A stretch of DNA of 64,000 bases, from positions 15,148 through 79,147 of the forward strand of contig CAYGBX010000001.1 of assembly GCA_964348195.1 (NCBI GenBank), written 5' to 3'. How positions within the stretch are numbered: position 1 is the stretch's first letter; every line of letters starts with the position of its first letter. Below the pieces are notes generated by a model, which did not search any database, had not been told where the DNA came from, and worked only from the letters and a program-made list of their open reading frames with translations. The translations under genes and the position numbers were made by a program. Positions 4,222 to 25,355 of this stretch are shown here, one piece after another. This stretch comes from an uncultured Anaerolineales bacterium. GTDB lineage: Bacteria > Chloroflexota > Anaerolineae > UBA7937 > JACPPX01.

Positions 4222-4230
4222 CGCTTGCCT

Positions 4231-6534: not shown

Positions 6535-9500
6535 CTAGCTTCCCCCGCCGTGGACCCAGGCCAGCGCAGTCGTGGCGGCCAGCTGCTTGAAGGCATTTGC
6601 GTTCTTGGGATCGAGCCGCACTGCTTCGCGGAACATCTCGGCGGATTCGGAGTACTGCTTGAGCCGCTTGTAGAGGAGGCCAGCCCGGAAGTGATGGTCG
6701 GCCTCGCCGGGCTCGGTCTGACAGGCCAGCAGGAACTCTCGGAGGGCCCGGTCGTAGTTGCCTTGCTCCTCATGGGTCCTGCCCAGCTCGCTATGCGCCT
6801 GACCGCTGGCAGGGTCGAGCTCCGCCATCTTCCGGAAGTGAGCGACCGCCTTGTCCGTGTGGCCCAGCCTCCGGCACAGTGCGCCCACCTCGCTGTGGTA
6901 GGCCTTCTCCTCGGGAGCGGCACGCAGCGCCTTGTGGTAGGCCTCCAAGGCATCGTCGAAGCGATCCTGATCCAGATAGGTGCGCGCTCTCGAGATGTAG
7001 GCCGGCGCGTACTGGGGATCGCGCGAGGTGGCCTCGTCCAGGGCCTCAAGTGCGGCGTGGTAGTCGCCCTGTCGATGAAGGACCTCGGCTACCCGATGGG
7101 GATACGCCGGATCCTGGGGCTCCAGGTCGCTCGCTCGCTGGTAGTGCGCCAGGGCCTGTTCCAGGTCGCCCCGCTTCTCTTGGAGGTGGCCTAGGTGGGC
7201 GTACGAGGCCGCCTTGGCCCCGCCGAGTGAGAGCGCCTCCTCGAAGCATGCGATCGCTTCCTCGAACCGCCCCATCCCTTCCAGGGCGACGCCGAGCCCG
7301 AGCCACAGCGTCGGGTCCTGAGGCTGCGTCTCCAAAGCTCGGCGGTAGGCATCCGCCGAATCGGAATTCCGTCCCACCTCTTGGTAGGCCGCACCGAGGG
7401 CGGATCGGGCCCGTAGGTCGTTCGGGTCGAGGCGCACTGCCTCCTCCAGGTGCTCGACCGCCTTGTCCCAGCGCCGCATGTGAGACAGCGCGCTGGCAGC
7501 GGCCCTGTGAAACTCGGCTGCTCGGGGAGCCAGCTCGACCGCCTTCCGGTACTGCTCGAAGGCGGACTGATGCCGCCCGGCCCGCTCGTACAGACCGCCG
7601 AGCACCGCCCGCCATCGTGCGACGCCTGGACCGGCCGCCACAGCGCGCTCCATCGCCTCCATCGCTTCTTCGTGGTCCCCGGCGGACTCCAGCGTACCGG
7701 ACAGGGCGTGCAGGTAGCGGCCGTCGTGGTCGGATCGATCCACGGCAGCACGAAAGGCGGACAACGCGCGATCATGCTCTCCCAGAGCCTCGTGGATCCG
7801 GCCGAGCTGGTAGTGGGTCTCGGCCTCGTCTGGCGCCAGGCTGTGAGCGGCCTCCAGCTCGCGCCGGGCGTCCTCGTACCGCCCCAGCTGTCGATACACC
7901 GAGCCAAGGGCGCGCCGTCGCTCTGGTGACCCAGGCTCCAGATCCACGGACTTCTGGCAGAGCCTTTCTGCTTTGTCTCCGTCTCCCTGGGCAGCGTTCA
8001 GAAGACCCAGCTCAGAGTAGGCCTCCGCCCAATTCGGCTTGAGGTCCAATGCCGCCTGGAGCGAACCCGCGGCCTTGGCGTACCAGTGGTCAGATGCGCC
8101 ATTCTCTGACGCCTTCCCAAGGGCTCGCTCCACGGCGCCCAACCGCAAGACATAGGTGGGATCGTGCGGCGCGAGCCGACTGGCCTCGTCGTAGAGACGC
8201 TGGGCATCCTCTAGTCGACCCGCTCCCTCGTAGGCCTGGCCGAGCCGGAAGGTCGCTCGCGGATCGGTCCCCTCCTCCGTAGCGAGGGGCTCGAGAACAT
8301 GGACCGCCTCCAGGGCGCGTCCGCTCGCCAGGAGGGCCCCACCCAATGCCTCGCGGATCTGTGCATCGTGGGGGATCAGATCCAGCGCCCGCTGGTAGAA
8401 GCCCAAGGCCTGCTCAACCTGGCCCGCCTTCTCGCGCGCCCGACCCAGAAGGTAGAGAGCCTCCGGGTCCGCCGAGTCCATCTCCAGGGCACGTTCGAGG
8501 GCCACGGTCGCTTCCTCCGCGTGCTCCCGCTCCAAGAGGAGCGCGCCCAGATCGCGGTGGTGGATGGCGTCCTTGCCGTCGCAAGCCACGGCCTCCTCAA
8601 ATTGGGTGCGTGCGGCGTCCCAGCGACCCGCCTCCCGGTAGAGTTGGCCCAGCCGATGGTGCAGCGGGGCGCTGCCGGGCAGGTTGGCGATCGCGCGCTC
8701 CAGGACCGTGGCGGCCTGGGCTTCTCGACCTAGCTGGCGCTCCAGGGCAGAGAGAGCCAGATGCGGTTCGGCAGATCGCGGCTGAAGTGAGGCCGCCTTT
8801 CGATAGCTGGACCGTGCTTCCTCCAGCTTTCCCATCGCCTCCTGCAACCTGCCGAGACCCAGCAGAGCCTCCACAGGCTCACTGTCAAGGGCCACAGCCG
8901 TGGCTAGTGCTTCCTCAGCTTCCTCTCGGCGGCCCAAAGCGCTGAGAAGGTTTCCGCGGGCTAGGTGGACCGTGGACTCCTCGGGAGCGATGCGCTCGGC
9001 CTTGGCCACCTCGTCGAGAGCCGCGGCAAGGTCGCCCCGCTCCTCCAGGATCCGCGCCAGGTTCAGGTGAGCCTGTGGATCGTCCGAGTCCGTGCTGCGG
9101 GCTCGCTCCAACGAGGCCTCCGCCTCGTCCACGCGACCCATCTGGTCCAGAACTCGGCTCATTCGACCCAGGTGACTGGGGTCCAGGAAGAGCGACTCCC
9201 CTGCCCCCTGGTAGGCCTCCAAGGCCTCGGGGTGCCACCCGTTGCTCTCGAACCCCTCTCCCAGGGTCTCTCGGAGTGCGGGATCGTGCGGATTCAGCGC
9301 CACCGCCTCCTCAAGTGCGGCCACGGCTTCTTCCCCGCGGCCGAGATCCAGAAGAGTCCGTCCCATCCACTGGAGATAGCGGGGCTCATCCGGCGCCTGC
9401 GCGATTGCCCGTCGGCCGGCGGAAAGCGCCTCTTCCATGCGGTCGGCCGCCTGGTACAGGTTGGCGAGTTCGAACTGGAGCTCCGCGCCGCCCTGCTTCC

Positions 9501-12500
9501 GCCCCACCGCCTCCTCCAACGCAGAAAGCGCTTCGTCGAGATCTCCCTGGGCGCGACACACTCGGGCATACCCGCGATGGTGCCTCGTGTCAGCGGGATC
9601 CAGGGACATCGCTTGCCGGTACCGCTCGCGGGCCTGCTCTGTCTCTCCCTGCTCCTCGAAGGCCTGGCCCAGCAGATGTTGGGCCTCGGCGTCCGAGGGA
9701 TCGGTGGCGAGTGCGCATTCCAATGCCTCCCTGGCCTCGTCCGTTTGACCGGCCCGGAGCAGAACGCGTCCCTTGCGCCGGAGATGTCCCGGCTCCTCCG
9801 GCTCCACGCGGATCGCCTCCTCGTACTCGCGCAGCGACTCCTCCAACCGACCCTCTGCCTCCAGGATCTCTCCGATCCGGGCGTGGATGGCGGCCGATCC
9901 ACCATTCCCCGCCCCGAGAGCCCTGCGCAGGGCTTCCAGGGCCTTTGTCGCATCGCCCATCTTTTGGAGCAGGGATCCCGCGGCCAGAGGAAGCTCGCCG
10001 TCGTCCGGCGCCAGCTCTATGGCACGCTGATACGCCTCCAGGGCCTCGCCGTACTCCTCTCGGCCCTCGGCGACCGCGCCCCAGAGTCGCAGAGTGAGGG
10101 CGTCGGTGGGGTCGAGCGTCAGTGTCCGCTCCAACGCGGCGCGAGCTTCGTTGAGCCGTCCCATCTGCAGGCTGACCGCTGCCAACCCCCGCTGATGAGC
10201 CGGATCCTCAGGAGCGAGACGAATGGCGCGCCGGTAGCTCCCTAGCGCCGCGTCCAGTCTTCCATCCGCCTTCTGGATCTCGCCCAGAAGTGCGTGTCCC
10301 GTCGCCAGGTCCTTCCCCAGGGAGATTGCTTCGCGAGCCGCGGCCTCCGCCTCCTCCAGACGCGACATTCGCAAGAGCAGCCTTGACAGAGCCAGCCGGT
10401 GCACAGCAGCCTCTGGATCCAGCTCGATCGCGTGACGCAGGGCCCTCAAAGCGCGCGAGCCCTCCCCCTGAGAGGCGTAGGCGATTCCCAGCTCGCGCTG
10501 GATCTCCCCCCGCTCCGGAGCGAGCCGAGCGGCTTCCTCAAGCTCTGCCGTGGCCGCGTCTCCGCGACCGAGCTCCTGAAGTCCGGCCGCCAGATGGGCG
10601 CGTATCTCCGCATTGCCCGGGTCCATGTCCCGGGCCTTCAGATAGGCTTCGACCGCCTCCTCAAGGTCGCCTCTCGCCGCGTGAATCCTCGCGTGCTCGT
10701 GGTGGACGGATGCCAGGCCTGGGCCCAGATCCAGGGCACTGGAGATGGTGGACAGCGCTTCGTCCAGCCGCTTCAGGCCACGCAGCGCCTCCGCTTCCAG
10801 CACCAGGAAGCCTGGCTCCCCGGGAGCCATCTCGCGGCCGCGACGACACCAGCCCAACGCCTCGTCAAAGCGATTGAGCACGAGATGGACCCGGGCCAGT
10901 CCCGCAAGCGGTGCCGGTCCCAAAGGATCCTGCGCGTGCGCCTGCTCCAGGGCGGCCAACGCCTCGCTGCCGCGGCCAGCCACGATCAGCGCCATTCCCA
11001 AGTGGAGATGCCCGTGGGCGTTCTCCGGCTCCAGGCGGCTCGCCTCTCGATAGGACTCTACAGCCTGGGAGGATCGGCCTTGGGCGGCGAAAACCGCTCC
11101 CTGGACGCGGTGGGCCTCAGCGAATTGCGGGGCTCCCTCCACGGCGCGCTCGGCGAACCGAGCCGCCTCATCGAGCTCCCCCTGCTCAGACAAGACCCGG
11201 GCCAAGCCAACTTGATACAGGGGCTCGTCGGGATCCTGGCCGGCGGCCTGCTCATAGGCGCCCTTCGCCTCCTCCAGCCAACCCTGGCCTTCGTAGGCCC
11301 GAGCCAGTTCGTTGAGCACCGAAGGGTCGGAGTCGTCTTGAGATCGGGCCCTCTCGAGGAACTCCCGTGCCTCTTCGAACCGGCCCATCTCGTTGAGCAC
11401 CCGACCCACACTCGCAAGGTAACGAGCTTCCTCTGCCTGCAGGGCCGCGGCGCGGCGGAAGGCCTGGAGCGCCTCGGCCATTCGCCCTTCCGCCTCGTAG
11501 GCAAGCCCAAGCTGATGGTGGGTGTCCACGTAGGCTGTGCCAGCCGCGGCCACGGCTCCTTCCAGCTCCTCCACGGCCTGGGCGTGCTGATCCATCTGCT
11601 GCAGAACCAGCCCGCGGTTGCGCCGCCGGAAGAGCTCTTCGGTGCGAACCCCGGATGGATCCTTCTCCCAGGAGCCCAGATCGAGGGACCCTTCCTCCAG
11701 GCTTCTCTCCAGTAGAATCGCGGCCGCCCGATGGCAACCCTCCTGCTTGAGAAGCCTCCCCAGCCGATAGGCGGTGGCCCCATCCACGGCGGGGCCGGAG
11801 GCGGAGAGAAGGTCGGTGACCTTGCCCACCTGGCCCTCGGGCGGCTCGTTGTCGGCAATGCTGCGGGCAGCGAGCCGGAGGGAGGCCTCGTCTCCCTTGA
11901 CGAGCAGGGCTTGAAGGTAGGCCAGAGGATCCGGAGCGAAGGCGTAGCCTTGGACGACGGCGCCCTCGGCCATGGGTTCCCTGCTGAGGGCGGCGACTCG
12001 CTCCCAGCCACCGCTTCTTCCCAGGGCCTGTCCCGCGAAGTGCTCTAGCACGAGCGGATCCAGAAACGCCACCGCCCCTCGCCCGCGCCGGACCAGAAGG
12101 CCAGTCGCCAGAATCCGCTCCAGGAGAGCACCAGCACCTCGGCCGTCCGCGGAAACCTCTTCGAAGCGCTCGAGCCAGGCCTCCCGTGGCGCGTGGTTGC
12201 GGCCCTCCGCGAGCAGGCCAACGGCAGCCGTCTCCAGCGCCGCGTCAGCCCCCTCTGGCATCTCCTGCACCAATCGCTCGACAGCGGTGGAGATCACGTC
12301 GCCCGGCCTCCACCAGCGGCGAACAGCGTCCGATTCCCGCGCCAGCTCGACCAGCGCCGACAGGAAGAGGGGGGAATGGACCAAGTTCCAGAGGTCTGGC
12401 CGCCGGCGCAGCCGCTCCTCAACCTCCTGTGCCAGAGGCCGCTCCAGCCGCTGCGCAAGGTAGCGGCGAACGTCGTCGTCGGAGAGGGGCAGGATCTCCC

Positions 12501-13071
12501 AGGTGGAGATCTCGCCCAGCCAGCGCCGATATATAGAGAAGTCCGCGCTTCGGCAGGCTACCACCGCACGCTGATCTCGGAGGGTGGTACCGACCAACCG
12601 TTCGATCTCCTCCAGAGCATAGTGGCTGGTGATGCGATCCAGGTTGTCGAGCAGCAGGGTCACGTAGCCCCGTCCGAGGAGGGAGCTGAGAGCCGAACGC
12701 TCCATGTCGGGATCGCCCAGAGAGGCGGCGATTCGCTCGCGGATGCCATCCCCTTCCTCCATGGGCGCCAGGTCCACCAGCAGAGGCACGGGACGATCCC
12801 GCTCTCCCGGCATGGCGTCCTCCGCCAAGACGGTCACCAAGTGTTCCAAGAAGACCGTCTTGCCTGCCCCCGGTCCGCCGAGCACCACGGCTCGGCCCGC
12901 ATCCAGGATCGCCCGGGTGGCGTCCGGGGCGGGACTGTCCGCGAGGGGTCGCGTCAGCCGAGGTGGGATGTAGGGGCCGCCAGCACCTCCGGAGCGCTCC
13001 TGCACCCCGGCCAGATGCCGGCGCAGGACCGCCAGGCCCGAAGGGGCGGCCCCTTCATTGCGTTCCGCCAT
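6535..13071 (-). CDS. STAND-class NTPase (NACHT/AAA-like) fused to a ~1800-aa TPR array
   Basis: 2178 aa. Walker A VVLGGPGAGKTVFLEHL, Walker B VTLLLDNLD, sensor-1-like VVACRSADF, then winged-helix-like region. From about residue 400 to the C-terminus there are uninterrupted TPRs (dozens of A-x-x-x-Y/F...A-L-x-L-x-P units). SD GGGGAGG 4 nt upstream of the ATG. No N-terminal effector domain. Confidence 0.85.
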   Translation of the reverse strand: MAERNEGAAPSGLAVLRRHLAGVQERSGGAGGPYIPPRLTRPLADSPAPDATRAILDAGRAVVLGGPGAGKTVFLEHLVTVLAEDAMPGERDRPVPLLVDLAPMEEGDGIRERIAASLGDPDMERSALSSLLGRGYVTLLLDNLDRITSHYALEEIERLVGTTLRDQRAVVACRSADFSIYRRWLGEISTWEILPLSDDDVRRYLAQRLERPLAQEVEERLRRRPDLWNLVHSPLFLSALVELARESDAVRRWWRPGDVISTAVERLVQEMPEGADAALETAAVGLLAEGRNHAPREAWLERFEEVSADGRGAGALLERILATGLLVRRGRGAVAFLDPLVLEHFAGQALGRSGGWERVAALSREPMAEGAVVQGYAFAPDPLAYLQALLVKGDEASLRLAARSIADNEPPEGQVGKVTDLLSASGPAVDGATAYRLGRLLKQEGCHRAAAILLERSLEEGSLDLGSWEKDPSGVRTEELFRRRNRGLVLQQMDQHAQAVEELEGAVAAAGTAYVDTHHQLGLAYEAEGRMAEALQAFRRAAALQAEEARYLASVGRVLNEMGRFEEAREFLERARSQDDSDPSVLNELARAYEGQGWLEEAKGAYEQAAGQDPDEPLYQVGLARVLSEQGELDEAARFAERAVEGAPQFAEAHRVQGAVFAAQGRSSQAVESYREASRLEPENAHGHLHLGMALIVAGRGSEALAALEQAHAQDPLGPAPLAGLARVHLVLNRFDEALGWCRRGREMAPGEPGFLVLEAEALRGLKRLDEALSTISSALDLGPGLASVHHEHARIHAARGDLEEAVEAYLKARDMDPGNAEIRAHLAAGLQELGRGDAATAELEEAARLAPERGEIQRELGIAYASQGEGSRALRALRHAIELDPEAAVHRLALSRLLLRMSRLEEAEAAAREAISLGKDLATGHALLGEIQKADGRLDAALGSYRRAIRLAPEDPAHQRGLAAVSLQMGRLNEARAALERTLTLDPTDALTLRLWGAVAEGREEYGEALEAYQRAIELAPDDGELPLAAGSLLQKMGDATKALEALRRALGAGNGGSAAIHARIGEILEAEGRLEESLREYEEAIRVEPEEPGHLRRKGRVLLRAGQTDEAREALECALATDPSDAEAQHLLGQAFEEQGETEQARERYRQAMSLDPADTRHHRGYARVCRAQGDLDEALSALEEAVGRKQGGAELQFELANLYQAADRMEEALSAGRRAIAQAPDEPRYLQWMGRTLLDLGRGEEAVAALEEAVALNPHDPALRETLGEGFESNGWHPEALEAYQGAGESLFLDPSHLGRMSRVLDQMGRVDEAEASLERARSTDSDDPQAHLNLARILEERGDLAAALDEVAKAERIAPEESTVHLARGNLLSALGRREEAEEALATAVALDSEPVEALLGLGRLQEAMGKLEEARSSYRKAASLQPRSAEPHLALSALERQLGREAQAATVLERAIANLPGSAPLHHRLGQLYREAGRWDAARTQFEEAVACDGKDAIHHRDLGALLLEREHAEEATVALERALEMDSADPEALYLLGRAREKAGQVEQALGFYQRALDLIPHDAQIREALGGALLASGRALEAVHVLEPLATEEGTDPRATFRLGQAYEGAGRLEDAQRLYDEASRLAPHDPTYVLRLGAVERALGKASENGASDHWYAKAAGSLQAALDLKPNWAEAYSELGLLNAAQGDGDKAERLCQKSVDLEPGSPERRRALGSVYRQLGRYEDARRELEAAHSLAPDEAETHYQLGRIHEALGEHDRALSAFRAAVDRSDHDGRYLHALSGTLESAGDHEEAMEAMERAVAAGPGVARWRAVLGGLYERAGRHQSAFEQYRKAVELAPRAAEFHRAAASALSHMRRWDKAVEHLEEAVRLDPNDLRARSALGAAYQEVGRNSDSADAYRRALETQPQDPTLWLGLGVALEGMGRFEEAIACFEEALSLGGAKAASYAHLGHLQEKRGDLEQALAHYQRASDLEPQDPAYPHRVAEVLHRQGDYHAALEALDEATSRDPQYAPAYISRARTYLDQDRFDDALEAYHKALRAAPEEKAYHSEVGALCRRLGHTDKAVAHFRKMAELDPASGQAHSELGRTHEEQGNYDRALREFLLACQTEPGEADHHFRAGLLYKRLKQYSESAEMFREAVRLDPKNANAFKQLAATTALAWVHGGGS

Positions 13072-13081
13072 GGGCCCTCCC

Positions 13082-13426
13082 CTAGAGCCCCGTGGTGAGC
13101 CAGAAGGCGACTATGCTGATGGTGACACCCGCGACCGTGAGGAAGGCACCGATACCGGCAGCGGTACGGATCAGCCGGTTGATGGCTTCCACCAGGTTGG
13201 AAGCGGAGTCGATGATTGGCGCCACGGCATCCTGCGTGACGGCCCGGCCACTGATCTTTATGGACTGAGCCGAGAGGTGCTTCATGGCGCTGTGGTACTC
13301 CTTGGACAGGATGATCCACAGACCGGAGACGGTGCAGACCACCCCGATCAGGAACAGGATCACCGCCATCCCGACCTCGAGGTCAGCGGCTGGCATTGGG
13401 ACCTCCTTTCGCGATCCGCACGGCAC
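13082..13426 (-). CDS. Small membrane protein (2 predicted TM helices), unknown function
   Basis: 114-aa ORF. Hydrophobic MAVILFLIGVVCTVSGLWIIL and GIGAFLTVAGVTISIVAFWLTTGL flank a ~60-aa soluble segment. The ORF-track start overlaps the receiver gene by 44 nt. The true start is probably internal (Met at 13396 or GTG/ATG near 13370). Confidence 0.5.
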   Translation of the reverse strand: MPCGSRKEVPMPAADLEVGMAVILFLIGVVCTVSGLWIILSKEYHSAMKHLSAQSIKISGRAVTQDAVAPIIDSASNLVEAINRLIRTAAGIGAFLTVAGVTISIVAFWLTTGL

Positions 13427-13811
13427 GGCGGACCAGCTGCTTCATCTCCTCCATCTCGAAGGGCTTGCTGACATAGGCAGAGACTCCGACGCGTTCCGCC
13501 TCCGCCTCCACATCGCTGCATCCATAGGCGGTCATGAGAATGGCCTGGGTTCTGGTCTGGAGCCCTCGGGCGGCGCGCAGCAATTGGATCCCGCTCAGGC
13601 CAGGCATCCTCAGGTCGGCGATGATCACGTCCGGCTGCCTCTCAGCTACCGCCTCCAGCGCGTCCTCGCCTGAATGGCGAACCTCAACCTCGTACCCCGG
13701 CTCCTCCTCCAGCGCGCTGCGCAGGAAGTGGGCCAGGGTTCGCTCGTCCTCAGCGATGAGGATTCGGGAGGTTCGTGCGTCTACCCTTTTCTGCGTGATC
13801 GCGGTCGCCAC
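13383..13811 (-). CDS. Single-domain response regulator (CheY-like receiver)
   Basis: 142 aa. RILIAEDE, phospho-acceptor IIADLRMPG, LMTAYG, SKPF. GTG start with GAGG SD 8 nt upstream. First gene downstream of the sigma-54 promoters. Confidence 0.8.
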   Translation of the reverse strand: MATAITQKRVDARTSRILIAEDERTLAHFLRSALEEEPGYEVEVRHSGEDALEAVAERQPDVIIADLRMPGLSGIQLLRAARGLQTRTQAILMTAYGCSDVEAEAERVGVSAYVSKPFEMEEMKQLVRRAVRIAKGGPNASR

Positions 13812-13836
13812 TCAAGTTCCTCTACATGAGATACTC

Positions 13837-13852
13837 GCAAGATCCGTGCCAG
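13837..13852 (-). promoter_or_regulatory. Sigma-54 (RpoN) -24/-12 promoter, proximal copy (P2), transcribing toward 13811
   Basis: Minus-strand reading of 13837-13852 = CTGGCACGGATCTTGC. TGGCACG-N4-TTGC matches consensus spacing and bases exactly. -12 C at ~13837, predicted TSS ~13825, 14 nt before the GTG start. Confidence 0.6.
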
Positions 13853-13896
13853 CCCCCTGCCGACCGAGATGGGGCGGGCTCCACGATTGGGGAGCA

Positions 13897-13912
13897 GCAA
13901 GATCCGTGCCTG
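13897..13912 (-). promoter_or_regulatory. Sigma-54 -24/-12 promoter, distal copy (P1)
   Basis: Minus-strand reading = CAGGCACGGATCTTGCT. Identical 14-nt core GGCACGGATCTTGC exactly 60 bp upstream of P2, -12 TTGCT. Confidence 0.55.
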
Positions 13913-14000
13913 ACAGGCCCGATTCAGGCGTGGAGAGAGCGCCCGACTGCTCCTCGGCGGCTCCCGGATCGACTACCGCGGTTCGGTGAGACGGGGTGAC

Positions 14001-14035
14001 ACTGGGGGGACTTCCCCAACTGGGGGAAATCCCCC
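14001..14035. promoter_or_regulatory. Candidate enhancer (UAS) for the adjacent sigma-54 activator: two adjacent imperfect dyads
   Basis: ACTGGGGGGACTTCCCC (14001-14017) and ACTGGGGGAAATCCCCC (14019-14035). Both are TGGGGG-N2-3-CCCCCA dyads, 18 bp centre to centre, ~100-130 bp upstream of the sigma-54 -24 elements and ~150 bp from the end of the bEBP gene. Confidence 0.35.
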
Positions 14036-14187
14036 ATCAGAAGAGGGATCGGCGCGCAACAGGAGCTGTGTGCCAGCGCCGGCTGGACGGACGAGGGCAG
14101 CGAGCCAGGACGCGTTCAGAGAGCTGTGCTAGCCGAAGGTGGAGTACGTGATCCGGGGCCCGCGGTGGATGAGGACGCGAGGAGAGG

Positions 14188-15561
14188 CTACTTCAGGCCG
14201 TACTTCGAAAGGGAGTAGCGGAGGACGTCGCGGGTGACGCCCAGGAGGCGGGCAGCCTCGCTCTGGTTTCCGCCGGTCCGCTCCAGCGCCTGGGCGATCA
14301 TCCGCCTTTCGAACTCGGCGACCGTCCCCTTCAGATCGATGCCCGCATCGTCGAGGGTCGCCTCAAGCGACGGGGCCAGAGGCAAGAAGGCCCTGTCGGT
14401 AACGATCTCTCCGGGCAGGTGAGCCGGCTGAATCTCATCGCCGTCGCAGAGGATGACCGCGCGCTCCATCACGTTTCTCAGCTCTCGGACGTTGCCGGGC
14501 CAGTCGTACCTGCGAAGGAGCTCCATCGCCTCCTCTGAGACCCCGGTCACGTTCTTTCCCATGGCCTCTGCGTACTCGGCCAGGAAAGTCAAGACCATAG
14601 GGTCGACATCGCCCGGTCGGTCGCGAAGCGGCGGCACCTCGATCACGACCACCCCAAGCCGGTAGTAGAGATCCTCGCGAAACTCCCCCGAATCCATGGC
14701 GGCTCTCAGGTCCCGGTTGCTGGCGGAAACGACCCGGATGTCCACCTGGATGTCACGCTCGCCCCCTACCCGACGGAAGGACTCGGTCTCCAGCACCCGG
14801 AGCAGCTTGGCCTGCAGATCCGGCCTCATACTCCCGATCTCGTCCAGAAACAGTGTCCCGCCGTCGGCCGTCTCCAGCAGCCCTTTCTTCTGTCGCTTGG
14901 CGTCGGTGAAGGCGCCGCGTTCGTGGCCGAACAGCTCGCTCTCAAGGAGGGTGTCCGGGATCGCCGCGCAGTTGATGGCCACAAAGGGACCATCGGCGCG
15001 GTCGCTCTGACGATAGAGGGCGCGGGCGATGACCTCCTTGCCCGTGCCGCTTTCCCCCTGGATCAGCACGCTGGCCTTGCTGGCCGCAAGCCGCGCCACG
15101 AGCCTCTCTATCTCTCGCATAGCCGGGCTGTCACCGATGACCCAGGGACGATCCCCATCGCCCCGGCCCCGCAGCCGGGCAAGCTCTTCGCGCAGGGCAC
15201 GCGACTCCAGGGCGCGCGCGATCGTCAGCTTGAGATCATCAAGATCGGGGGGCTTCTCAAGATAGTCATAGACCTTGAGCCGCATGGCCTCCACGGCGCT
15301 GCCAACCGATCCGTACCCTGTCATCATGATCACCGGCAATTCGGCATCGCCGGCACGGATGGCCCGGAGCACCTCCATCCCCTCCACATCGGGCAGCTTG
15401 AGGTCGAGGAGGACCAGGTCGATCTCGCGCTGTCCTACGGCCTCCAATCCCTCCCGGCCCGTCCCCGCCGCGACTACCTCGTAGCCCTCCTCGAGGAGGG
15501 ACTCCCTGAGGAAATGGCTGAGGGTGGACTCGTCCTCGACGATCAGGATGGTGCGACTCAC
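14188..15561 (-). CDS. Sigma-54-dependent transcriptional activator (NtrC/Fis family bEBP: REC + AAA+ sigma-54 interaction + Fis HTH)
   Basis: 457 aa. Receiver ILIVEDE...LVLLDLKLPDVEG. AAA+ VLIQGESGTGKE, GAFTDA (GAFTGA variant), ELFGHERGAFTDA, VRELRN. C-terminal Fis-type HTH QSEAARLLGVTRDVLRYSL. Confidence 0.9.
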   Translation of the reverse strand: MSRTILIVEDESTLSHFLRESLLEEGYEVVAAGTGREGLEAVGQREIDLVLLDLKLPDVEGMEVLRAIRAGDAELPVIMMTGYGSVGSAVEAMRLKVYDYLEKPPDLDDLKLTIARALESRALREELARLRGRGDGDRPWVIGDSPAMREIERLVARLAASKASVLIQGESGTGKEVIARALYRQSDRADGPFVAINCAAIPDTLLESELFGHERGAFTDAKRQKKGLLETADGGTLFLDEIGSMRPDLQAKLLRVLETESFRRVGGERDIQVDIRVVSASNRDLRAAMDSGEFREDLYYRLGVVVIEVPPLRDRPGDVDPMVLTFLAEYAEAMGKNVTGVSEEAMELLRRYDWPGNVRELRNVMERAVILCDGDEIQPAHLPGEIVTDRAFLPLAPSLEATLDDAGIDLKGTVAEFERRMIAQALERTGGNQSEAARLLGVTRDVLRYSLSKYGLK

Positions 15562-15567
15562 CTTACC

Positions 15568-17625
15568 CTACCCTCCCAGTGGGATTCGGACGACGAATGC
15601 CGTGGCCCCCATTGGGTCACTCTCGGCCTGGATTTCGCCTCCATGGGCTTCGATGATCCTGCGGGCCACCGCCAGGCCCAGAGGGGCTCCCGCCTCCACC
15701 GAGAATCCCGATTCACTGCCATCGGAGGAGCCAGAGGCCGCCCCGGCAGCCTGGTCCCGTCGAATCTCGATCTCGGCGTACCCGTCCCCGTCGGCAGGGT
15801 CGCTCACGGCCGAAGCAGTGATCGATCCCGATCCAGACTGGCCAGCGATGAGAGCAAGAAGAAGGTGGCGAAAGGCCCGCTGGAGCGCATCGGGGTCGCC
15901 CTGGACTGCCTTGAGGTCACGGCCCAGGTGTGTCTCGATCCCCGAGCCGCGGGCCTCGGCCTGCGAGCGACAGGCCTCGACGGCTGCGTGGAGGGTCTGC
16001 CCGAGGTCGGTGGGCACCGGCTGCAACCTCACCGGGCGCGACAAGAGGAGGAGCTCGTCGATCACCCGCTTCACCCGCAGGCTCTCCTGGAGGATCATCT
16101 GCAGCCCTTCGTGGCCCTCATCATCGGGATCGCTCTGCCCCGCGAGGTGCTGGATCCCGGTTACGATGCCAGCCAGGGGGTTCCGGATCTCGTGAGCCAC
16201 GGTCGCCGAGATCGCTTCCAAGGCCGAGCCGTAGCCCGCGCGCTCCCGAACACGCTCCAGTCTGGCCTCCTCTTCCAGGTCGTGGAGCACGACCACTGAT
16301 CCGGATCCAAACTCTGCATCCCAGAGGTGAAGGGACACCCTCAGCCGCCTGTCTCCTATCTCGAGTTCCTCCCACCACGGCGCCCAGCGCGCGGCTCCGT
16401 CATCCGGGGCGCCAAGGGTCTCCGACCCCAGCAGCGCGGCCAGCGAACGGCCGACGAGGCGGGAGGGGTTCCCCAGAAACCGCTCCGCCCTCCGGCTGGC
16501 CACGACGACCCGTCCTTCTCCGTCGAGCACCAACGCGGCAAGGGGCAATGAGCGCCAGGCCTCCTGCCGCAACCGACCCCGCACCTCCAGTCTCCGGCTC
16601 GCCCGCCGACGCGCCTCGCTCTTGTACCGGGTGAGGCCGGCCCCCAGCCGGCGGCCGAAGCCAACCAACTCCTCGAGGTGGCCGGGGGTGAGCGCCTGGG
16701 CCGGGTGGCCCACCACCAGCAGCACCCCGAGGAGTTGGCCGTTGCCTGAGACGGGTATCAGCGCGCCGGTTCCCACTCCGGGAGCTTTCGAGACCACGCT
16801 CCAGTACCAGGGATCCGCCGAATCCTCCTCCAGCAGGATCGGCCCGGCCTCCTCCCGGAGCCGCTCCACCAGGCCGTAGCCGGAATGAAGCCGGCGGCTC
16901 GCCCGCTCCTCGAAGGAGGCCGAGGGGAACAAGCGATGGTCGACAAGCCGGTACTCATCGCGGGCGGCATCGAGCAGGAACACGGCCGCGCGGCCGACTG
17001 GAGGAAGGTCCAGCGCCGCCTGCAACCCCGCTGCCACAGCTTCCTCCGTGCTATCTGCGGTGAGCAGGCGGAGGGTGAGGTTGTCGAGGCGAATCAGAGA
17101 CTCCCAGCGGCGCTGAGTGGCCCGTGCCTTCTGGGATTCGCGCCGTCCGCGGGACGCCGGGTCCAAGTCAGCGGAGATCTCAATCTCGGTCCCGGTTCCT
17201 TCCTGCTTGTCGGAGAGCTCCGGGCCATCGGGCGAACGGACGGTCCCGGACCAAGTCCTGCTCCCGGACGGCAGGGCACGGGAGACAGCGGCCCGAAGCA
17301 TCGAGGGATCGACCGGCTTCTCCAGGTAGTCGGCGGCGCCCAGCCTCATGGCCTTCACTGCATCTCCCACCGAGCCGGGACCGATCATCAGCACGCCGGG
17401 ACCATCCCTGCCTTCGGCGCGAATCGTCCGCAGCAGCTCAAGCCCATCGCCATCGGGCAGCTCCGTTTCGATGAGGACCAGGTCCACAGACTCGCGGGCC
17501 AGAGTTCCGAGTCCCTCCTGACCGGTGCGCGACCAGAGCACCTCGTACCCCTCCTCTTCCAGAGCCTGGCGGAGGAAGAAGCTTGTCGCTTCTTCCGCAT
17601 CGATGAGCAGAACCTGCTGGGCCAT
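15568..17625 (-). CDS. Hybrid sensor histidine kinase with N-terminal receiver (REC-GAF/PAS-HisKA-HATPase)
   Basis: 685 aa. N-terminal REC (LLIDAEE...LVLIETELPDGDG...YLEKP), central sensory region, H-box ATVAHEIRNPLAGI, C-terminal ATP-binding G-box. Stop is 6 nt before the bEBP start. Confidence 0.85.
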   Translation of the reverse strand: MAQQVLLIDAEEATSFFLRQALEEEGYEVLWSRTGQEGLGTLARESVDLVLIETELPDGDGLELLRTIRAEGRDGPGVLMIGPGSVGDAVKAMRLGAADYLEKPVDPSMLRAAVSRALPSGSRTWSGTVRSPDGPELSDKQEGTGTEIEISADLDPASRGRRESQKARATQRRWESLIRLDNLTLRLLTADSTEEAVAAGLQAALDLPPVGRAAVFLLDAARDEYRLVDHRLFPSASFEERASRRLHSGYGLVERLREEAGPILLEEDSADPWYWSVVSKAPGVGTGALIPVSGNGQLLGVLLVVGHPAQALTPGHLEELVGFGRRLGAGLTRYKSEARRRASRRLEVRGRLRQEAWRSLPLAALVLDGEGRVVVASRRAERFLGNPSRLVGRSLAALLGSETLGAPDDGAARWAPWWEELEIGDRRLRVSLHLWDAEFGSGSVVVLHDLEEEARLERVRERAGYGSALEAISATVAHEIRNPLAGIVTGIQHLAGQSDPDDEGHEGLQMILQESLRVKRVIDELLLLSRPVRLQPVPTDLGQTLHAAVEACRSQAEARGSGIETHLGRDLKAVQGDPDALQRAFRHLLLALIAGQSGSGSITASAVSDPADGDGYAEIEIRRDQAAGAASGSSDGSESGFSVEAGAPLGLAVARRIIEAHGGEIQAESDPMGATAFVVRIPLGG

Positions 17626-17626
17626 C

Positions 17627-20503
17627 CTAGCCTTCCAGCGGCAAGTTCACGGTGAAGGTCGTTCCGGCGTCCAGCTCGCTCTCCACGGAGATCTCGCCGC
17701 CGTGCTCTTCCACGATACGACGCACGATCGCGAGCCCGAGGCCGGTTCCCCCCGGCTTGGTGGTGAAGAATGGCTCGAAGATCTGTCCCAGGTCGCGGTC
17801 CGCGATCCCCTCACCGCTGTCCCCTACAGTGACCACGGCCCTATCGCCCTCAGGAGAGACGCTGGTGCGCACTTCGAGCCGTCCTCCATCGGGCATCGCC
17901 TCCAGCCCGTTCTGGAGAAGGTTGGAAAAGGCCTGCTCCAGGCGCGCTTCGTCCCCGCGCAGAGGAGGAAGCTCTGGATCTCGGTCCCAGCGGACGGCGA
18001 CGCCCCGCTCTTCGGCCTGCGGCTCCAGACGGCGGAGCGCCCGCCCCATCACCTCAGAGATGTCGCTGGGCGCAAGTTTCAGTCTCACCGGACGCGAGAT
18101 GATCAGGATCTCCTCGATGATCCGGTTCACCCGGTCGCTCTCCTCGAGGATCATCTGCAGGCTGTCGTGTGAGGGGGCTTCGGGTCCGGTGGTCGCGACC
18201 AAGTGCTGGATGCCGGCAGCGATGGCGGCCAGAGGGTTTCGCACCTCATGGGCCACGACGGCACTCATCTCTCCCAACAGGGCCAGCCTGTCCAGCCGCC
18301 GTCGCTCGGCCTCCATGGCCCGGGCCTCGCTGAGATCCCGCACGACGACCACCCCGCCCCGCACGGCCCCCTTCTCCCCCTGGAGGGGACTGATGCTGGC
18401 TGCCAAGGGCACTATTCCGCCGCCCCGCTTCGGAACCTCGATCTCCCGAGGCGTGACGATCATCCCGCGTTCCAAGCTCTCGCGGACCATGACGGACGCA
18501 TCACCCAGCACCTCGTCGACGGCCTCTCCTTCCAGATCTCCCTCCTTGTATCCGAGCATCCGTCCCGCGGCGCGGTTGGCCAAGGTCACCTGTCCCGCCG
18601 GGTCGACCACCAGGATTCCGTCGGTCATGCTCTGCAGGATCGATTCGTTGAACTGCCGGACTGCCGACAGCTCTTCCACTGCCGTCTCCAACCGTCGGAA
18701 GAGCTGAGCGTTCTCCACCGCCACGCCGATCTGCTTGCCGAGGGCCTCCAACAGCCTTTGATCGTCGGGGGTGAAGCGATGGAGCGTGCGCCGGTACAGA
18801 TTGAGCACTCCCAGAACTTGGCCTTTGGCCTGGAGGGGGACGGCCACCAGAGAACCGAAACCGCCCCGGGGGGGACGCATTCCCTCCAGGAGGGGATCCG
18901 CGGCCAGGTCGCTCACGGCTACCACGCGGTTCCTCTCCACCACCTCCTTGGCCAGGGAGACGCCCACCTTGGAGTCGGAGCTGGGCTCGACCAATCCCAC
19001 CTGGACCGCCTGACGAAAGCCCGAACCCCTGTCCGTAGGAAGGTAGATCTCTCCCGCGTCCATCCTGGTCAGCGAAAGCGAATGGTCCAAGGCCTGGCCG
19101 AGCACGCCCTCAAGGTCCACCGTCCGGGACAGAGCCGCAGCGATGGCGTTGATGCCTGCCAGGTCTTGACTGCGCTCCACCAACTCCCGCCGCATGGCCT
19201 CGGCCTCTGTGACGTCCCGCAGGATGCACTGGATCACCTGGCGACCGTCCGACGAAACCATGTGGGCGCTCAGGTCGACCGCTATGTTCTCCCCGTCCTT
19301 GCGTACCAGAGCGACATCGCTGGCCGACCCGGCGCCAGACAGAACGGCAGCCTGAAGTCCCTCCATGGCGCGGCGGCGGTCCTTCATCGAAAGAAGCTGA
19401 CCGAGATCCATCGTGAGGAGCTCACCTCGTGGGTACCCAGTCAGCCGCTCCGCTCGGCGGTTGGCCTCGAGCAGGCTGCCGTCGGCCGGGCTGATGGTCA
19501 TGAGGGCGTCGTATCCACCTTCGATGAGCTTCCGGTAGCGATCCTCCAGGCTGGCCAGCGCCGCCTCTCCGGTTCGGACCTCACGCCGAAGTCCTCGGGT
19601 CCACGCCAAGAAGGCGCCCGCCGACAGAAGCACCCCAACGAGGAAGGCCAGCCCGGCCCCAATCAATCCACTGGCGGACGGGCCAGCCGCCTCCTGGACA
19701 GGCGTCCCGAACCAGCGCGCTTCGAGGCGAGCCAGCTCGCCCCTCTCTTGGAGGACGGACAACGCTCCGTCCAGAATCGGCAAGAGGGCAGCCAGGTTCT
19801 CAGGGAGCGCTGCGGTGTAGCTGAGGGAAGCCACTTCGGGCCCGACGATAAGAGCCTCCTCTCCCTCGTCTTGCTCCAGCAGGTAGCGGATCGCCTGGAC
19901 ATCGCCCAAGAAAGCTGCCGCTTGACCCTGCCGGACGGCAGCGAGCCCCTCGGCGGGTCCCGCGACAGGGAGGGAAATGGCTCCCGAGCCCTGCAGTTCA
20001 TTCAGTCCCGGCCCCGACCTGCGGACCGCCACGACCTCGCCCCCGAGGGAGGCCAGCGTGAGCTCGCCCTCGCGTTCTGCGGCGAAGGCGAGGTTCAGGG
20101 CGCTCGACAGATAGGGCTCGGTGACGAGGAGTCCCTCGACCTGAGACTCCGTGCTCACGAAGCCGAGGGCGGCATCCGCCCCGCCCTCGAGGATGAGACC
20201 TAGGCCATCATCAACTGGGAGCAGAAGCACTTCCACGCCGAGAAGAGAAGCCAGCGCGTCCCCCAACTCGCGCTCGAACCCTCGGTAGATGCCATCGCCC
20301 TCGCGAAAACCGAACGGCGGATTCCGACTCGAGGTGGCAAGCCGGACGGTCCCTCGGTCAGAGAGGAGTTGGCGAGAATCGGGGTCCAGGAAGGACGGGC
20401 CTCCGGCGCCGATTTGAAACAGCGCAAAGATGGCCAACAGCAGGAGGGCACCTCCACCCAGAACGAGCAACCCTCGCCTGCTAAGAAGACCCAGGTCCGG
20501 CAT
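17627..20503 (-). CDS. Membrane sensor histidine kinase with extracytoplasmic solute-binding (SBP_bac_3-like) domain, PAS-GAF-PAS, HisKA, HATPase
   Basis: 958 aa. N-terminal TM, periplasmic-type binding-fold motifs (RLATSSRNPPFGF, ...YRGFERELGDALASLLGV), second TM (LIGAGLAFLVGVLLSAGAFLAW), H-box AVVAHEVRNPLAAI, GTGLGLAIVRRIVEEHGGEI. Confidence 0.85.
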   Translation of the reverse strand: MPDLGLLSRRGLLVLGGGALLLLAIFALFQIGAGGPSFLDPDSRQLLSDRGTVRLATSSRNPPFGFREGDGIYRGFERELGDALASLLGVEVLLLPVDDGLGLILEGGADAALGFVSTESQVEGLLVTEPYLSSALNLAFAAEREGELTLASLGGEVVAVRRSGPGLNELQGSGAISLPVAGPAEGLAAVRQGQAAAFLGDVQAIRYLLEQDEGEEALIVGPEVASLSYTAALPENLAALLPILDGALSVLQERGELARLEARWFGTPVQEAAGPSASGLIGAGLAFLVGVLLSAGAFLAWTRGLRREVRTGEAALASLEDRYRKLIEGGYDALMTISPADGSLLEANRRAERLTGYPRGELLTMDLGQLLSMKDRRRAMEGLQAAVLSGAGSASDVALVRKDGENIAVDLSAHMVSSDGRQVIQCILRDVTEAEAMRRELVERSQDLAGINAIAAALSRTVDLEGVLGQALDHSLSLTRMDAGEIYLPTDRGSGFRQAVQVGLVEPSSDSKVGVSLAKEVVERNRVVAVSDLAADPLLEGMRPPRGGFGSLVAVPLQAKGQVLGVLNLYRRTLHRFTPDDQRLLEALGKQIGVAVENAQLFRRLETAVEELSAVRQFNESILQSMTDGILVVDPAGQVTLANRAAGRMLGYKEGDLEGEAVDEVLGDASVMVRESLERGMIVTPREIEVPKRGGGIVPLAASISPLQGEKGAVRGGVVVVRDLSEARAMEAERRRLDRLALLGEMSAVVAHEVRNPLAAIAAGIQHLVATTGPEAPSHDSLQMILEESDRVNRIIEEILIISRPVRLKLAPSDISEVMGRALRRLEPQAEERGVAVRWDRDPELPPLRGDEARLEQAFSNLLQNGLEAMPDGGRLEVRTSVSPEGDRAVVTVGDSGEGIADRDLGQIFEPFFTTKPGGTGLGLAIVRRIVEEHGGEISVESELDAGTTFTVNLPLEG

Positions 20504-21990: not shown

Positions 21991-22065
21991 CCCAGTCAGA
22001 GGACCGAGTGAGGAATTTTCCCCAGAATGCTAGCACACCCCCCTGGAGGTGTCAAAACGCGGTGC

Positions 22066-25334: not shown

Positions 25335-25355
25335 GGCTAGGTCCGTCGCTCCAAG

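Follow-up and report, generated by a model that had tools for sequence, protein, structure and literature searches.

The 376-bp gap that separates the gene of an NtrC-type enhancer-binding protein (bEBP) from a downstream operon is probably a sigma-54-dependent control region for that operon, which encodes a single-domain receiver protein, a small membrane protein, a NACHT-TPR protein and a C25 peptidase and continues towards mraZ. Here, a housekeeping-type promoter (22055-22027) would yield one transcript for sigma-54, two sensor kinases and the NtrC-type activator, and upon a signal the kinases would phosphorylate the activator. The latter would then assemble on two 18-bp palindromes (14002-14037) and, through DNA looping and ATP hydrolysis, open the sigma-54 RNA polymerase parked at a promoter designated P1 and probably also at a second one, P2. 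On two further palindromes, which abut the rpoN promoter, the same activator would limit expression of its own operon.

Several observations made within the window (the whole 64-kb stretch of DNA that was analysed) and in related genomes point to this reading. P1 and P2 rank first and second in the window for a promoter motif that forms an invariant block in orthologous loci, and the gap contains no recognizable sigma-70-type promoter. A sigma-54 with an RpoN box and an activator of the REC-AAA+-HTH_8 type are both encoded in the window. All genes of the string lie on one strand with the 376-bp gap as the sole gap of more than 10 nt, and the whole cluster is kept in one related locus, L108. 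The features are compiled in Table 1.

Table 1. Coordinates of the features discussed, numbered from the first base of the window
Feature	Position	Strand	Sequence or description	Basis
P1, sigma-54 -24/-12 promoter	13836-13852	-	CTGGCACGGATCTTGCG; GG 13850/13849, GC 13838/13837	Read directly
P2, second sigma-54-type -24/-12 element	13896-13912	-	CAGGCACGGATCTTGCT; GG 13910/13909, GC 13898/13897	Read directly
Block directly 5′ of P2	13913-13936	-	TCTCCACGCCTGAATCGGGCCTGT, 24 nt; 83% identity with L101 versus 49-56% in neighbouring intergenic segments	
Proximal enhancer palindrome (putative)	14002-14019	.	TTGGGGAAGTCCCCCCAG on the minus strand; centre ~101 bp from the -24 GG of P2, ~161 bp from that of P1	
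Distal enhancer palindrome (putative)	14020-14037	.	ATGGGGGATTTCCCCCAG on the minus strand; 17.6 bits; 18 bp centre-to-centre from proximal	
Receiver protein, single domain	13383-13811	-	First gene of target operon; GTG start, GAGGA 5 nt upstream	
Two-helix membrane protein, 104 aa	13082-13396	-	62-72% identical across orthologs	
NACHT (STAND) NTPase, 2178 aa	6535-13071	-	Very long TPR array	Pfam
Rest of gap-free string	1839-6534	-	TPR + peptidase C25 (4231-6534); 453-aa protein; 191-aa protein; mraZ (1839-2300)	
NtrC-type enhancer-binding protein (bEBP)	14188-15561	-	REC, sigma-54-interaction AAA+, HTH_8	Pfam
Hybrid sensor kinase	15568-17625	-	REC-GAF-PAS-HisKA-HATPase; found in L108 too	Domain search
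Sensor kinase	17627-20503	-	Solute-binding-protein-like domain, PAS, GAF, kinase core	Pfam
rpoN (sigma-54), 478 aa	20512-21948	-	First gene of rpoN-kinase-kinase-bEBP string; AID, CBD and DBD	Pfam
Two operator palindromes (putative), enhancer family	21973-22025	-	22008-22025, CTGGGGAAAATTCCTCAC, 22.3 bits; 21973-21990, TTGGGGAAGAGTCCGCAC, 13.7 bits	
Sigma-70-type promoter (predicted)	22027-22055	-	TTGACA-N17-TAGCAT with TG extension	10/12 matches, 0.0 expected

Tandem -24/-12 elements and their orthologs

P2 lies 60 bp upstream of P1, and both elements face the receiver gene, the T of TGGCAC in P1 falling 40 nt and its counterpart in P2 falling 100 nt before the GTG start codon. The two share a 14-mer (GGCACGGATCTTGC) that occurs exactly twice in the whole 64 kb. 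Compared with the sigma-54 consensus TGGCAC-N5-TTGC, with its GG-N10-GC core, P1 agrees at 10 of 10 positions and P2 at nine of 10, the exception being an A in place of T at position -26 (AGGCAC). The base following TTGC is G in P1 and T in P2 and is A in every ortholog. In the promoter alignment the -10 to -1 region is G+C-rich in P2 and A+T-rich in P1 and all orthologs, and P1 aligns with the ortholog promoters throughout, including the A+T-rich stretch and a AGTGGAGG-like block. The initial annotation had recognized a pair of sigma-54 promoters with an identical 14-nt core, a 60-bp offset and an orientation towards the receiver gene, all of which is borne out. It had also described both as TGGCACG-N4-TTGC, which applies to P1 but not to P2, so that P2 is no textbook match; the promoters were correctly located, but the ranges quoted for them were one base short of the 17-mers.

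A loose consensus search (TGGCAC-N5-TTGC with at most one mismatch) found three matches versus 2.9 expected, a count that is at chance level and uninformative by itself, and it was replaced by a 20-nt scoring matrix built from 12 distinct orthologous promoters only. Among the 127,962 window positions scanned with this ortholog-only matrix, P1 (25.2 bits) and P2 (18.4 bits) occupy the first two ranks and the next-best score is 14.7. Both also exceed the best scores of 20 shuffled windows (mean 12.5, maximum 16.7). The ortholog promoters themselves score 28.5-32.2 bits, and P2 falls below all of them. A third TGGCAC near 14072 was rejected as a promoter on account of its wrong GG-to-GC spacing and low matrix score.

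In the usual sigma-54 geometry the start of transcription lies some 12 nt beyond the GC. A start near 13825 is therefore predicted for P1, with a leader of about 14 nt that holds the GAGGA ribosome-binding site. P2, the weaker match, probably serves as a secondary start that raises the output; it lacks the T at -26, and its G+C-rich -10 to -1 region may mean that closed complexes form there but seldom open. No sigma-70-type promoter was found in 13700-14300, which covers the gap, and no terminator was found after the bEBP gene, so that part of the receiver operon's expression could stem from read-through. No structured leader or riboswitch was detected from P2 to the start codon, folding being no better than that of shuffled sequences (z = 0.82), and RNA families and tRNAs were not encountered within the 64-kb window.

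Orthologous loci were collected from Anaerolineae-type metagenomes with the 104-aa small membrane protein as marker. Twenty of these loci (L001, L081-L096, L102, L103 and L108) possess one strong promoter each, CTGGCAC-N5-TTGCA, situated just 5′ of the same receiver, small membrane protein and NACHT-TPR operon. The C-TGGCA...CTTGC block is located 471-485 bp 5′ of the start of the small ORF in 17 orthologous loci that otherwise have little intergenic sequence in common, and it is also present in L102, L103 and L108. When 16 orthologous loci, P1 and P2 are aligned (18 rows), the -24/-12 element is the sole invariant block 5′ of the receiver gene.

Two promoters are encountered only in the window and in its closest relative, L101, and the distance from GG to GG is 60 bp in both. 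The L101 copy of P2 (cGGCACGGTTCTTGCT) has C at -26 and scores only 9.7 bits. Identity between the window and L101 amounts to 100% at P1 (a 21-nt stretch) and 88% at P2, versus 49% in the spacer. A third member of this two-promoter sub-lineage was not found among the loci that might have supplied one, namely L106, which ends just past the enhancer, and L107, which has other genes after the bEBP gene. Further relatives are represented in the data sets SRR22388294, SRR29324605 and ERZ23498356, with identities to the window of 91% for the bEBP, 88% for the receiver and 88% for sigma-54. Outside the 14-nt core the P1 and P2 units are alike only at chance level when compared by eye, and a recent 60-bp tandem duplication was rejected for this reason. 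P1, which most resembles the single promoter of all relatives, is read as the ancestral copy, and P2 is read as a lineage-specific duplicate that arose in the ancestor shared by the window and L101 and was thereafter held at 60 bp. The retained 60-bp distance in L101, together with the gradient of identity from P1 through P2 to the spacer, supports selection on the duplicated P2, as judged from this one pairwise comparison.

Palindromes, the activator and the rpoN operon

The initial annotation had noted two near-palindromes of the NtrC-site type upstream of the promoters, and these GGGGG/CCCCC dyads are indeed members of a conserved 18-bp palindrome family, TGsGG-N6-CCsCA, that is found upstream of the promoter in orthologs. 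A repeat search places them as an 18-bp tandem at 14001-14018 and 14019-14036, and they were scored as palindromes at 14002-14019 and 14020-14037. The centre of the distal palindrome is 119 bp from the -24 GG of P2 and 179 bp from that of P1, and the proximal palindrome is 89% identical in L101. In L102, the nearest single-promoter relative, the corresponding enhancer-to-promoter distances are about 97 and 115 bp. Orthologs carry one to four copies that pass the scoring threshold, between -231 and -319. In L085, L086, L001 and the window alike, an unbiased repeat search recovered one and the same tandem unit of 17-22 bp. In divergent orthologs the palindrome derived from this unit, GTGCGGAAttTTCCGCAG, is nearly fixed at -299, -277 and -260, the background rate being 0.15 hits per kb and strand. 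The palindrome remains with the promoter where extra genes follow the bEBP gene (L087, L090, L003, L106 and L108). These tandem units, fixed positions and constant association with the promoter, along with a second site in front of rpoN, argue for an enhancer. A k-mer screen of nine divergent intergenic regions gave a borderline result (TTCCCC in 9/9, null maximum 8) that is less informative than the repeat search and the matrix scan. Most orthologs have a second conserved palindrome, CCACWATATnTAGTGG, within about -70 to -160, where enhancers classically lie; it was not found in the window by eye, and in the genomes that carry it, it could be the actual target of the bEBP.

The adjacent gene had been taken to encode an enhancer-binding protein that ends about 150 bp away, and both points agree with the Pfam assignments (PF00158, 238 bits; PF02954, 57 bits; PF00072, 93 bits) and with a stop codon at 14188, 152 bp from the dyads. 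It is the one bEBP gene of the window. The sigma-54-contact loop of its product and of all syntenic orthologs reads GAFTDA, compared with the canonical GAFTGA, and the F and T are kept. Linkage, conservation and the recurrence of the palindromes at the promoter in front of the bEBP operon lead us to infer that the adjacent bEBP is the protein that binds the palindromes at 14002-14037. The label STAND for the giant downstream protein is likewise appropriate, as its residues 62-209 match NACHT with 36.8 bits (cut-off 26.7) and TPR families extend along the remainder. Further downstream, the 453-aa and 191-aa proteins gave no Pfam family match, the ATG of mraZ overlaps the stop codon of the preceding gene, and the gene order from 1839 to 6534 is the same in L103. 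MraZ boxes were not detected anywhere in the window.

The window also contains a sigma-54 gene, missed by the initial annotation, on the same strand and 6.7 kb further upstream. Its product has an exact 478-aa database match, aligns end-to-end with solved sigma-54 and retains the RpoN box (SRRTVAKYRE). Where proteobacterial sigma-54 has its acidic region II, the window protein has CxxC-X8-CxxC.

The two putative operators are positioned between the predicted sigma-70-type promoter and the rpoN start codon, the first of them starting at 22025, 2 nt past the -10 hexamer. The same layout precedes rpoN in L097, L098, L099, L104, L105 and L108, at sigma-54 identities down to 48%. A candidate activator site at -10/+1 of the regulator operon's own sigma-70-type promoter has the arrangement of negative autoregulation, and the bEBP may repress its own operon. 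Orthologs of the sensor kinase with the solute-binding-protein-like domain directly follow rpoN in L097-L099, L104, L105 and L108. A contig reaching from rpoN to the target operon was sought; L098, L099, L100, L104 and L105 break off about 1.9 kb inside the kinase gene and L097 after some 0.4 kb of it, and L108 alone spans the whole cluster on a single contig.

Alternative readings

It is possible, though rather unlikely, that P1 alone works and that P2 is a duplication relic, at most a non-productive site for the holoenzyme that serves as a decoy, a reservoir or a brake on looping. Such a role would suit the low score of P2 relative to P1 and the orthologs, its loss of the otherwise invariant T at -26, its want of an A+T-rich stretch for melting, the still weaker P2 of L101, and the 20 other orthologous loci in which a single promoter suffices. 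A neutral relic should, however, decay as the spacer does, yet the window and L101 share 83-88% of the positions in the GG-N10-GC core of P2 and in the adjoining 24 nt 5′ of it, and the 60-bp offset is kept. The enhancer lies about as far from P2 as it does from the only promoter of L102, which likewise counts against a relic. A far more sweeping doubt, that the motif matches are chance products of G+C-rich DNA and the operon is read by read-through or from an unrecognised promoter, could draw on the chance-level count of the loose consensus and on the bEBP gene having no terminator; it is very unlikely given an invariant promoter whose position is fixed in 17 loci with little shared intergenic sequence and which recurs in three further loci, matrix scores above all shuffles, and a sigma-54 and a bEBP encoded alongside.

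The palindromes, for their part, might be bound by a regulator other than the bEBP, either MraZ or an unlinked factor, with the bEBP acting from other sites or from solution. MraZ binds G-rich repeats, and as mraZ here has no promoter region of its own, any feedback by MraZ must act further upstream; the CCACWATATnTAGTGG palindrome of the orthologs, moreover, would offer the bEBP another site. MraZ boxes, however, consist of TGGGN units repeated directly every 10 bp, of which the window has none, whereas the sites in question are tandem 18-bp dyads, the form used by the dimeric Fis-type HTH of bEBPs. The HTH_8 domain of the bEBP is intact, apart from the dyads no repeated and conserved element was found upstream of the window promoters, and the second dyad location, at the promoter of the bEBP operon, suits classical autoregulation by an activator. 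Binding by another regulator is on these grounds improbable, and the bEBP remains the preferred candidate.

Comparison with described sigma-54 systems

Regulation by sigma-54 is essentially undescribed in Chloroflexota; in a 2011 survey both sigma-54 and the proteins that activate it turned up "only in some Chloroflexi" (PMC3162934), and the phylum goes unmentioned in a cross-phylum regulon study from 2025 (PMC12316311). For the present locus, comparison among relatives defines a full circuit, from the sigma factor, sensors and activator to the operator, enhancer, promoter and target, which is directly testable, and close relatives with one promoter or with two at a fixed 60 bp form a natural experiment on what the additional sigma-54 promoter brings. 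Its value lies in documentation and tractability, the mechanism being classical. A broader proposal would be that sigma-54 in this Anaerolineae-type lineage is not a global factor but an autoregulated cassette (rpoN, two kinases and one bEBP) whose only target is the adjacent operon, leading gaplessly into the mraZ/cell-division cluster; that the sigma-54 of the group has a zinc-ribbon-like CxxC-X8-CxxC for region II; and that the sub-lineage of the window lost the CCAC...GTGG element, its enhancer moving closer and its promoter being duplicated as a replacement. We regard this proposal as speculative and unlikely to hold in full.

The enterobacterial glnALG operon (glnAp2 with NtrB-NtrC) provides the closest layout for discussion. 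Its sigma-54 promoter is activated from tandem dyads about 100-140 bp upstream by NtrC, a protein of REC-AAA+-Fis-type-HTH order that is phosphorylated by a linked kinase, and NtrC sites that overlap the sigma-70 promoters glnAp1 and glnLp bring about negative autoregulation. The window resembles it in having a -24/-12 promoter with upstream tandem dyads, a REC-AAA+-HTH activator with a linked kinase, and sites at a sigma-70-type promoter. Unlike glnALG, the kinase-activator operon of the window is headed by rpoN itself, the half-site differs (TGsGG-N6-CCsCA), the activator loop is GAFTDA, and two tandem sigma-54 promoters take the place of one sigma-70 and one sigma-54 promoter; the target is a NACHT-TPR/peptidase operon and not nitrogen assimilation, and the host belongs to Chloroflexota. 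AtoC/ZraR-like bEBPs share the REC-AAA+-HTH_8 order and the sensor kinase partner, but AtoC/ZraR is an automated label that some sources attach to the orthologs, and the targets, signals and DNA site of the window are unrelated to ato or zra. A literature search under the wording "tandem sigma-54 promoters" returned nothing relevant, which is no proof of absence.

In Cereibacter sphaeroides, according to the available excerpts of the report, RpoN3 and its cognate activator AprX control xrpA (PMC11999139). As in the window, a sigma-54 is paired there with one bEBP and a narrow target, and in related species the promoter consensus and the activator are conserved together; the C. sphaeroides genome has four paralogues, RpoN3 among them, whereas the window sigma-54 was seen within 64 kb alone, and the same excerpts note neither kinases nor tandem promoters (PMC11999139). 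A CT-rich "insulator" within some sigma-54 promoters has been linked to lower expression of read-through transcripts, according to the abstract of that study (Levy et al., bioRxiv 10.1101/086108). A transcript from P2 or from read-through out of the bEBP gene would include P1 with UAUCUC a few nucleotides before GAGGA; this is a resemblance only, and folding of the predicted P2 leader does not surpass that of shuffled sequences, as given above. Set beside these systems, the locus is a well-documented fresh example of a known sigma-54 mechanism, with no new principle.

Paired sigma-54 promoter elements in the control region

The initial annotation had placed two perfectly spaced sigma-54 promoters between the activator gene and the receiver operon, and both elements can be read directly from the window sequence as CTGGCACGGATCTTGCG (P1) and CAGGCACGGATCTTGCT (P2), but P2 carries AGGCAC, not TGGCAC. 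The quoted ranges needed amending, as each element is a 17-mer one base longer. The described 14-nt core, GGCACGGATCTTGC, has just two copies in the window, 60 bp apart. The matrix scan that had been proposed as a check was run on the window with a matrix built from 12 distinct ortholog promoters only, and thus independent of the window. P1 (25.2 bits) ranked first of 127,962 window positions and P2 (18.4 bits) second, followed by a match of 14.7 bits; the best matches in 20 shuffled windows averaged 12.5 bits with a maximum of 16.7, and the ortholog promoters themselves score 28.5-32.2 bits. From these sequences both P1 and P2 are concluded to be slightly degenerate copies. In the promoter alignment P1 retains the A+T-rich -10 to -1 stretch of the orthologs and their AGTGGAGG-like block, which in the window is the ribosome-binding site, and P1 is concluded to be the counterpart of the conserved ortholog promoter; at the position of the A+T-rich stretch P2 has a C-rich one. 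A TGGCAC near 14072 was considered as a third promoter and rejected, its spacing being wrong. Searches found no sigma-70-type promoter in the gap and no terminator after the activator gene in the window.

Coordinates of genes and control elements in the window
Feature	Position	Strand	Remark
mraZ	1839-2300	-	ATG overlaps stop codon of the gene before
Two proteins, no Pfam family match	2300-4221	-	453 aa, 2860-4221; 191 aa, 2300-2875
TPR and C25 peptidase protein	4231-6534	-
NACHT and TPR protein	6535-13071	-	2178 aa
Small membrane protein	13082-13396	-	104 aa
Single-domain receiver	13383-13811	-
Control-region gap	13812-14187	-	376 bp
P1	13852-13836	-
P2	13912-13896	-
Two adjoining 18-bp near-palindromes	14002-14019, 14020-14037		repeat search and matrix scan
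NtrC-type activator	14188-15561	-	REC, AAA+, HTH_8
Hybrid kinase	15568-17625	-
Sensor kinase	17627-20503	-	solute-binding-like, PAS, GAF
rpoN (sigma-54)	20512-21948	-	first gene of string
Second rpoN-proximal palindrome site	21973-21990
First rpoN-proximal palindrome	22008-22025		best window match of palindrome matrix, 22.3 bits
sigma-70-type promoter	22055-22027	-	TTGACA-17-TAGCAT with TG extension; 10 of 12 matches, 0.0 expected
Envelope-related gene run	22066-31938	-	upstream of rpoN
ATP-dependent DNA ligase	32552-34243	+	N, adenylation and C domains; no relation to control region

In all, 22 related loci were gathered, from a search that used the small membrane protein as its specific query and from other searches. 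The order kinase, activator, gap, receiver, small protein and giant protein is kept at every locus with a long enough contig. A lone CTGGCAC-N5-TTGCA lies 471-485 bp upstream of the small open reading frame at 17 loci (with TGGCAT instead of TGGCAC at three of them), and a single promoter is also found in L102, L103 and L108. Only C, GGCA and CTTGC are invariant among 18 aligned promoter rows, comprising 16 orthologous loci plus P1 and P2. In L092 (2356) and L093 (2458) a further, weak sigma-54-like match, TGGyAATCCTCTTGC, overlaps the CCAC...GTGG palindrome 143 bp upstream of the main promoter; this match may be due to chance or may be another case of an extra promoter.

The only locus that shares two elements is L101, the closest relative, whose receiver is 88% identical. 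The elements read cGGCACGGTTCTTGCT and CTGGCACGGATCTTGCG, and their GG dinucleotides, at 115 and 175, are exactly 60 bp apart as in the window. In L102, next in relatedness (63%), there is a single promoter. When compared by eye, the window's P1 and P2 units resemble each other only at chance level beyond the 14-nt core, from which the duplication is concluded to be old. Between the window and L101 identity is 89% in the proximal palindrome, 56% from there to a 24-nt block 5′ of P2, 83% in that block (13913-13936, minus strand), 88% in P2, 49% in the inter-promoter spacer and 100% in the P1 21-mer, so that the conservation footprint, as judged from this one sequence pair, covers both promoters. 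The sequence of L106, a third member of the sub-lineage (activator 91% identical), stops just past the enhancer. The second promoter could provide extra output, could offer a second helical phase (60 bp being 5.7 turns), or could compensate for the CCACWATATnTAGTGG element of most orthologs.

Enhancer palindromes at two locations

The two adjacent dyads reported upstream of the promoters are likewise present, 152 bp from the activator stop codon, and are conserved in orthologs. In an unbiased repeat search the same tandem unit appeared in L085 (three copies, spaced 22 and 17 bp), in L086 and L001 (both 17 bp) and, with 18-bp spacing, in the window. A palindrome matrix refined on nine divergent gaps gave GTGCGGAAttTTCCGCAG, that is TGsGG-N6-CCsCA, with a background of 0.15 hits per kb per strand. 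Measured from the promoter, its positions are nearly constant: -299, -277 and -260 in L085, L086, L088 and L096; -294 and -277 in L083; -297 and -280 in L092 and L093; -272 and -255 in L089; and about -248 in the L001 group. The window palindromes are nearer, at -186 and -168 from P1 (-126 and -108 from P2), and those of L102 lie about -120 and -101 from its single promoter. L102 also has a terminator-like hairpin and T-run, CCCCTGAActaggcTTCAGGGGcttttttt (445-478), between enhancer and promoter, and ATGTATAAA repeats on both sides of its enhancer.

The region directly after the activator gene is an insertion hotspot (L003, L087, L090, L106, L107, L108), where different relatives have unrelated genes, including a methyltransferase, an HTH_3/Gp49 pair and a 306-aa open reading frame. 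Enhancer and promoter always adjoin the receiver gene in these relatives, and the palindromes stay beside the promoter despite the insertions in L003, L087, L090, L106 and L108. A second conserved palindrome, (G)ACCACWATATnTAGTGG, occurs in one or two copies between enhancer and promoter, at about -70 to -160 relative to the latter, in most orthologs (L083, L085, L086, L088, L089, L092-L096 and the L001 group; perfect in L086, CCACTACATGTAGTGG). Candidate binders are an architectural protein and a further regulator. Inspection of the window by eye did not find it, and P2 fills that interval.

Two palindromes of the enhancer type also separate the rpoN start codon from the sigma-70-type promoter, and the first of them starts 2 nt past the -10 hexamer. 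This layout is kept in L097 (sigma-54 88% identical), L098 (52%), and L099, L104, L105 and L108 (48-50%), and L108 has both palindrome locations on a single 181-kb contig. Their position on the promoter suggests autorepression of the rpoN operon. In classical NtrC-type circuits (glnAp1, glnAp2, glnLp) activator sites occur both ahead of the sigma-54 promoter and over the start of the promoter that drives the activator operon. Mainly because the palindromes occupy both of these locations, we infer that they are bound by the product of the adjacent activator gene.

The gene cluster and its surroundings

All genes of the cluster are on the minus strand, with the control region as the sole gap longer than 10 nt. 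The rpoN gene for the proposed promoters, missed in the initial annotation, lies in the window itself and leads a string with both kinases and the activator in which gaps are 1-8 nt, a linkage kept in L097-L099, L104, L105 and L108. The activator is the only one of its kind in the 64 kb, and its closest relatives in the genome collection are from Anaerolineales/Chloroflexi metagenome-assembled genomes (60-65% identity); sigma-54 relatives carry source names including Chloroflexi, Anaerolineae and Ktedonobacterales. These matches place the window in an uncultured member of the Chloroflexota, probably of the class Anaerolineae. Window G+C is 65%. The sigma-54-contact loop of the activator (residues about 214-219) reads GAFTDA, not GAFTGA, as it does in all syntenic orthologs and many other matches, although the search pattern favoured GAFTDA. 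Directly after region I, sigma-54 residues 53-68 (about 21740-21790) form a CxxC-X8-CxxC motif, CADCGALTSGERCPIC, where the solved proteobacterial protein has acidic region II. Identical spacing is seen in 117 of 120 retrieved relatives, and a literature search found no description of the motif in sigma-54; in Chloroflexota a zinc ribbon may have taken the place of region II.

Five contigs from separate records (L098, L099, L100, L104, L105) all break off within the kinase gene after rpoN, about 1.9 kb from its start, which suggests a repeat or strain-variable, assembly-breaking segment. The envelope-related run encodes PD40/Tricorn-like beta-propellers, a beta-lactamase-family protein, M23 peptidase, M14 carboxypeptidase, an FG-GAP and PGA_cap protein and a glutamine amidotransferase, in an order matching L099, L104 and L105; it is in keeping with the "cell exterior" theme put forward for sigma-54 (PMC3162934).

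At the other end of the cluster lies mraZ. This gene is normally the first of the cell-division and cell-wall cluster. Here, and in L103 (11912 onward), it starts in a TGATG overlap with the gene that ends the sigma-54-driven string and has no upstream intergenic region, so the sigma-54 operon may read into the division cluster. The most novel possibility would be an rpoN devoted to a single operon that continues into mraZ.

Proposed circuit and known systems

A housekeeping-type promoter would supply sigma-54, both kinases and the activator. Upon a signal, phosphorylated activator would oligomerise on the palindromes at 14002-14037 and by looping reach the sigma-54 holoenzyme at P1 (14-nt leader, start predicted near 13825) and probably also that at P2 (start predicted near 13885), while binding at the rpoN-proximal sites would limit its own operon. 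That the promoter-like elements arose by chance is extremely improbable. A role of P2 as mere relic or decoy is rather unlikely: its weak score, C-rich melting region and still weaker copy in L101 would fit such a role, but the window-L101 conservation pattern and the kept 60-bp spacing speak against it. Binding of the palindromes by another regulator, such as MraZ, appears quite improbable; mraZ here has no promoter region of its own, but the sites are dyads and not 10-bp direct repeats, and a search for MraZ-box-type repeats of this kind within the window found none. The preferred circuit, with the adjacent activator acting on P1 and probably on P2, is in line with the original interpretation, which the comparisons support, and the underlying observation holds with the minor corrections to P2 and the element ranges.

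Sigma-54 has been noted "only in some Chloroflexi" (PMC3162934), and a 2025 regulon survey makes no mention of the phylum (PMC12316311). A literature search under "tandem sigma-54 promoters" found no paper, though descriptions of such promoters may exist under other wordings. The significance of the locus, which is moderate, lies mainly in a phylum unexplored for sigma-54 and in an experimentally tractable contrast between one-promoter and two-promoter relatives. The predicted mechanism of the control region is classical, the locus being an additional, well-supported case of a known mechanism. In mechanism it most resembles the enterobacterial gln system, and in organisation it comes closest to a dedicated sigma-54/activator pair such as RpoN3-AprX (PMC11999139).
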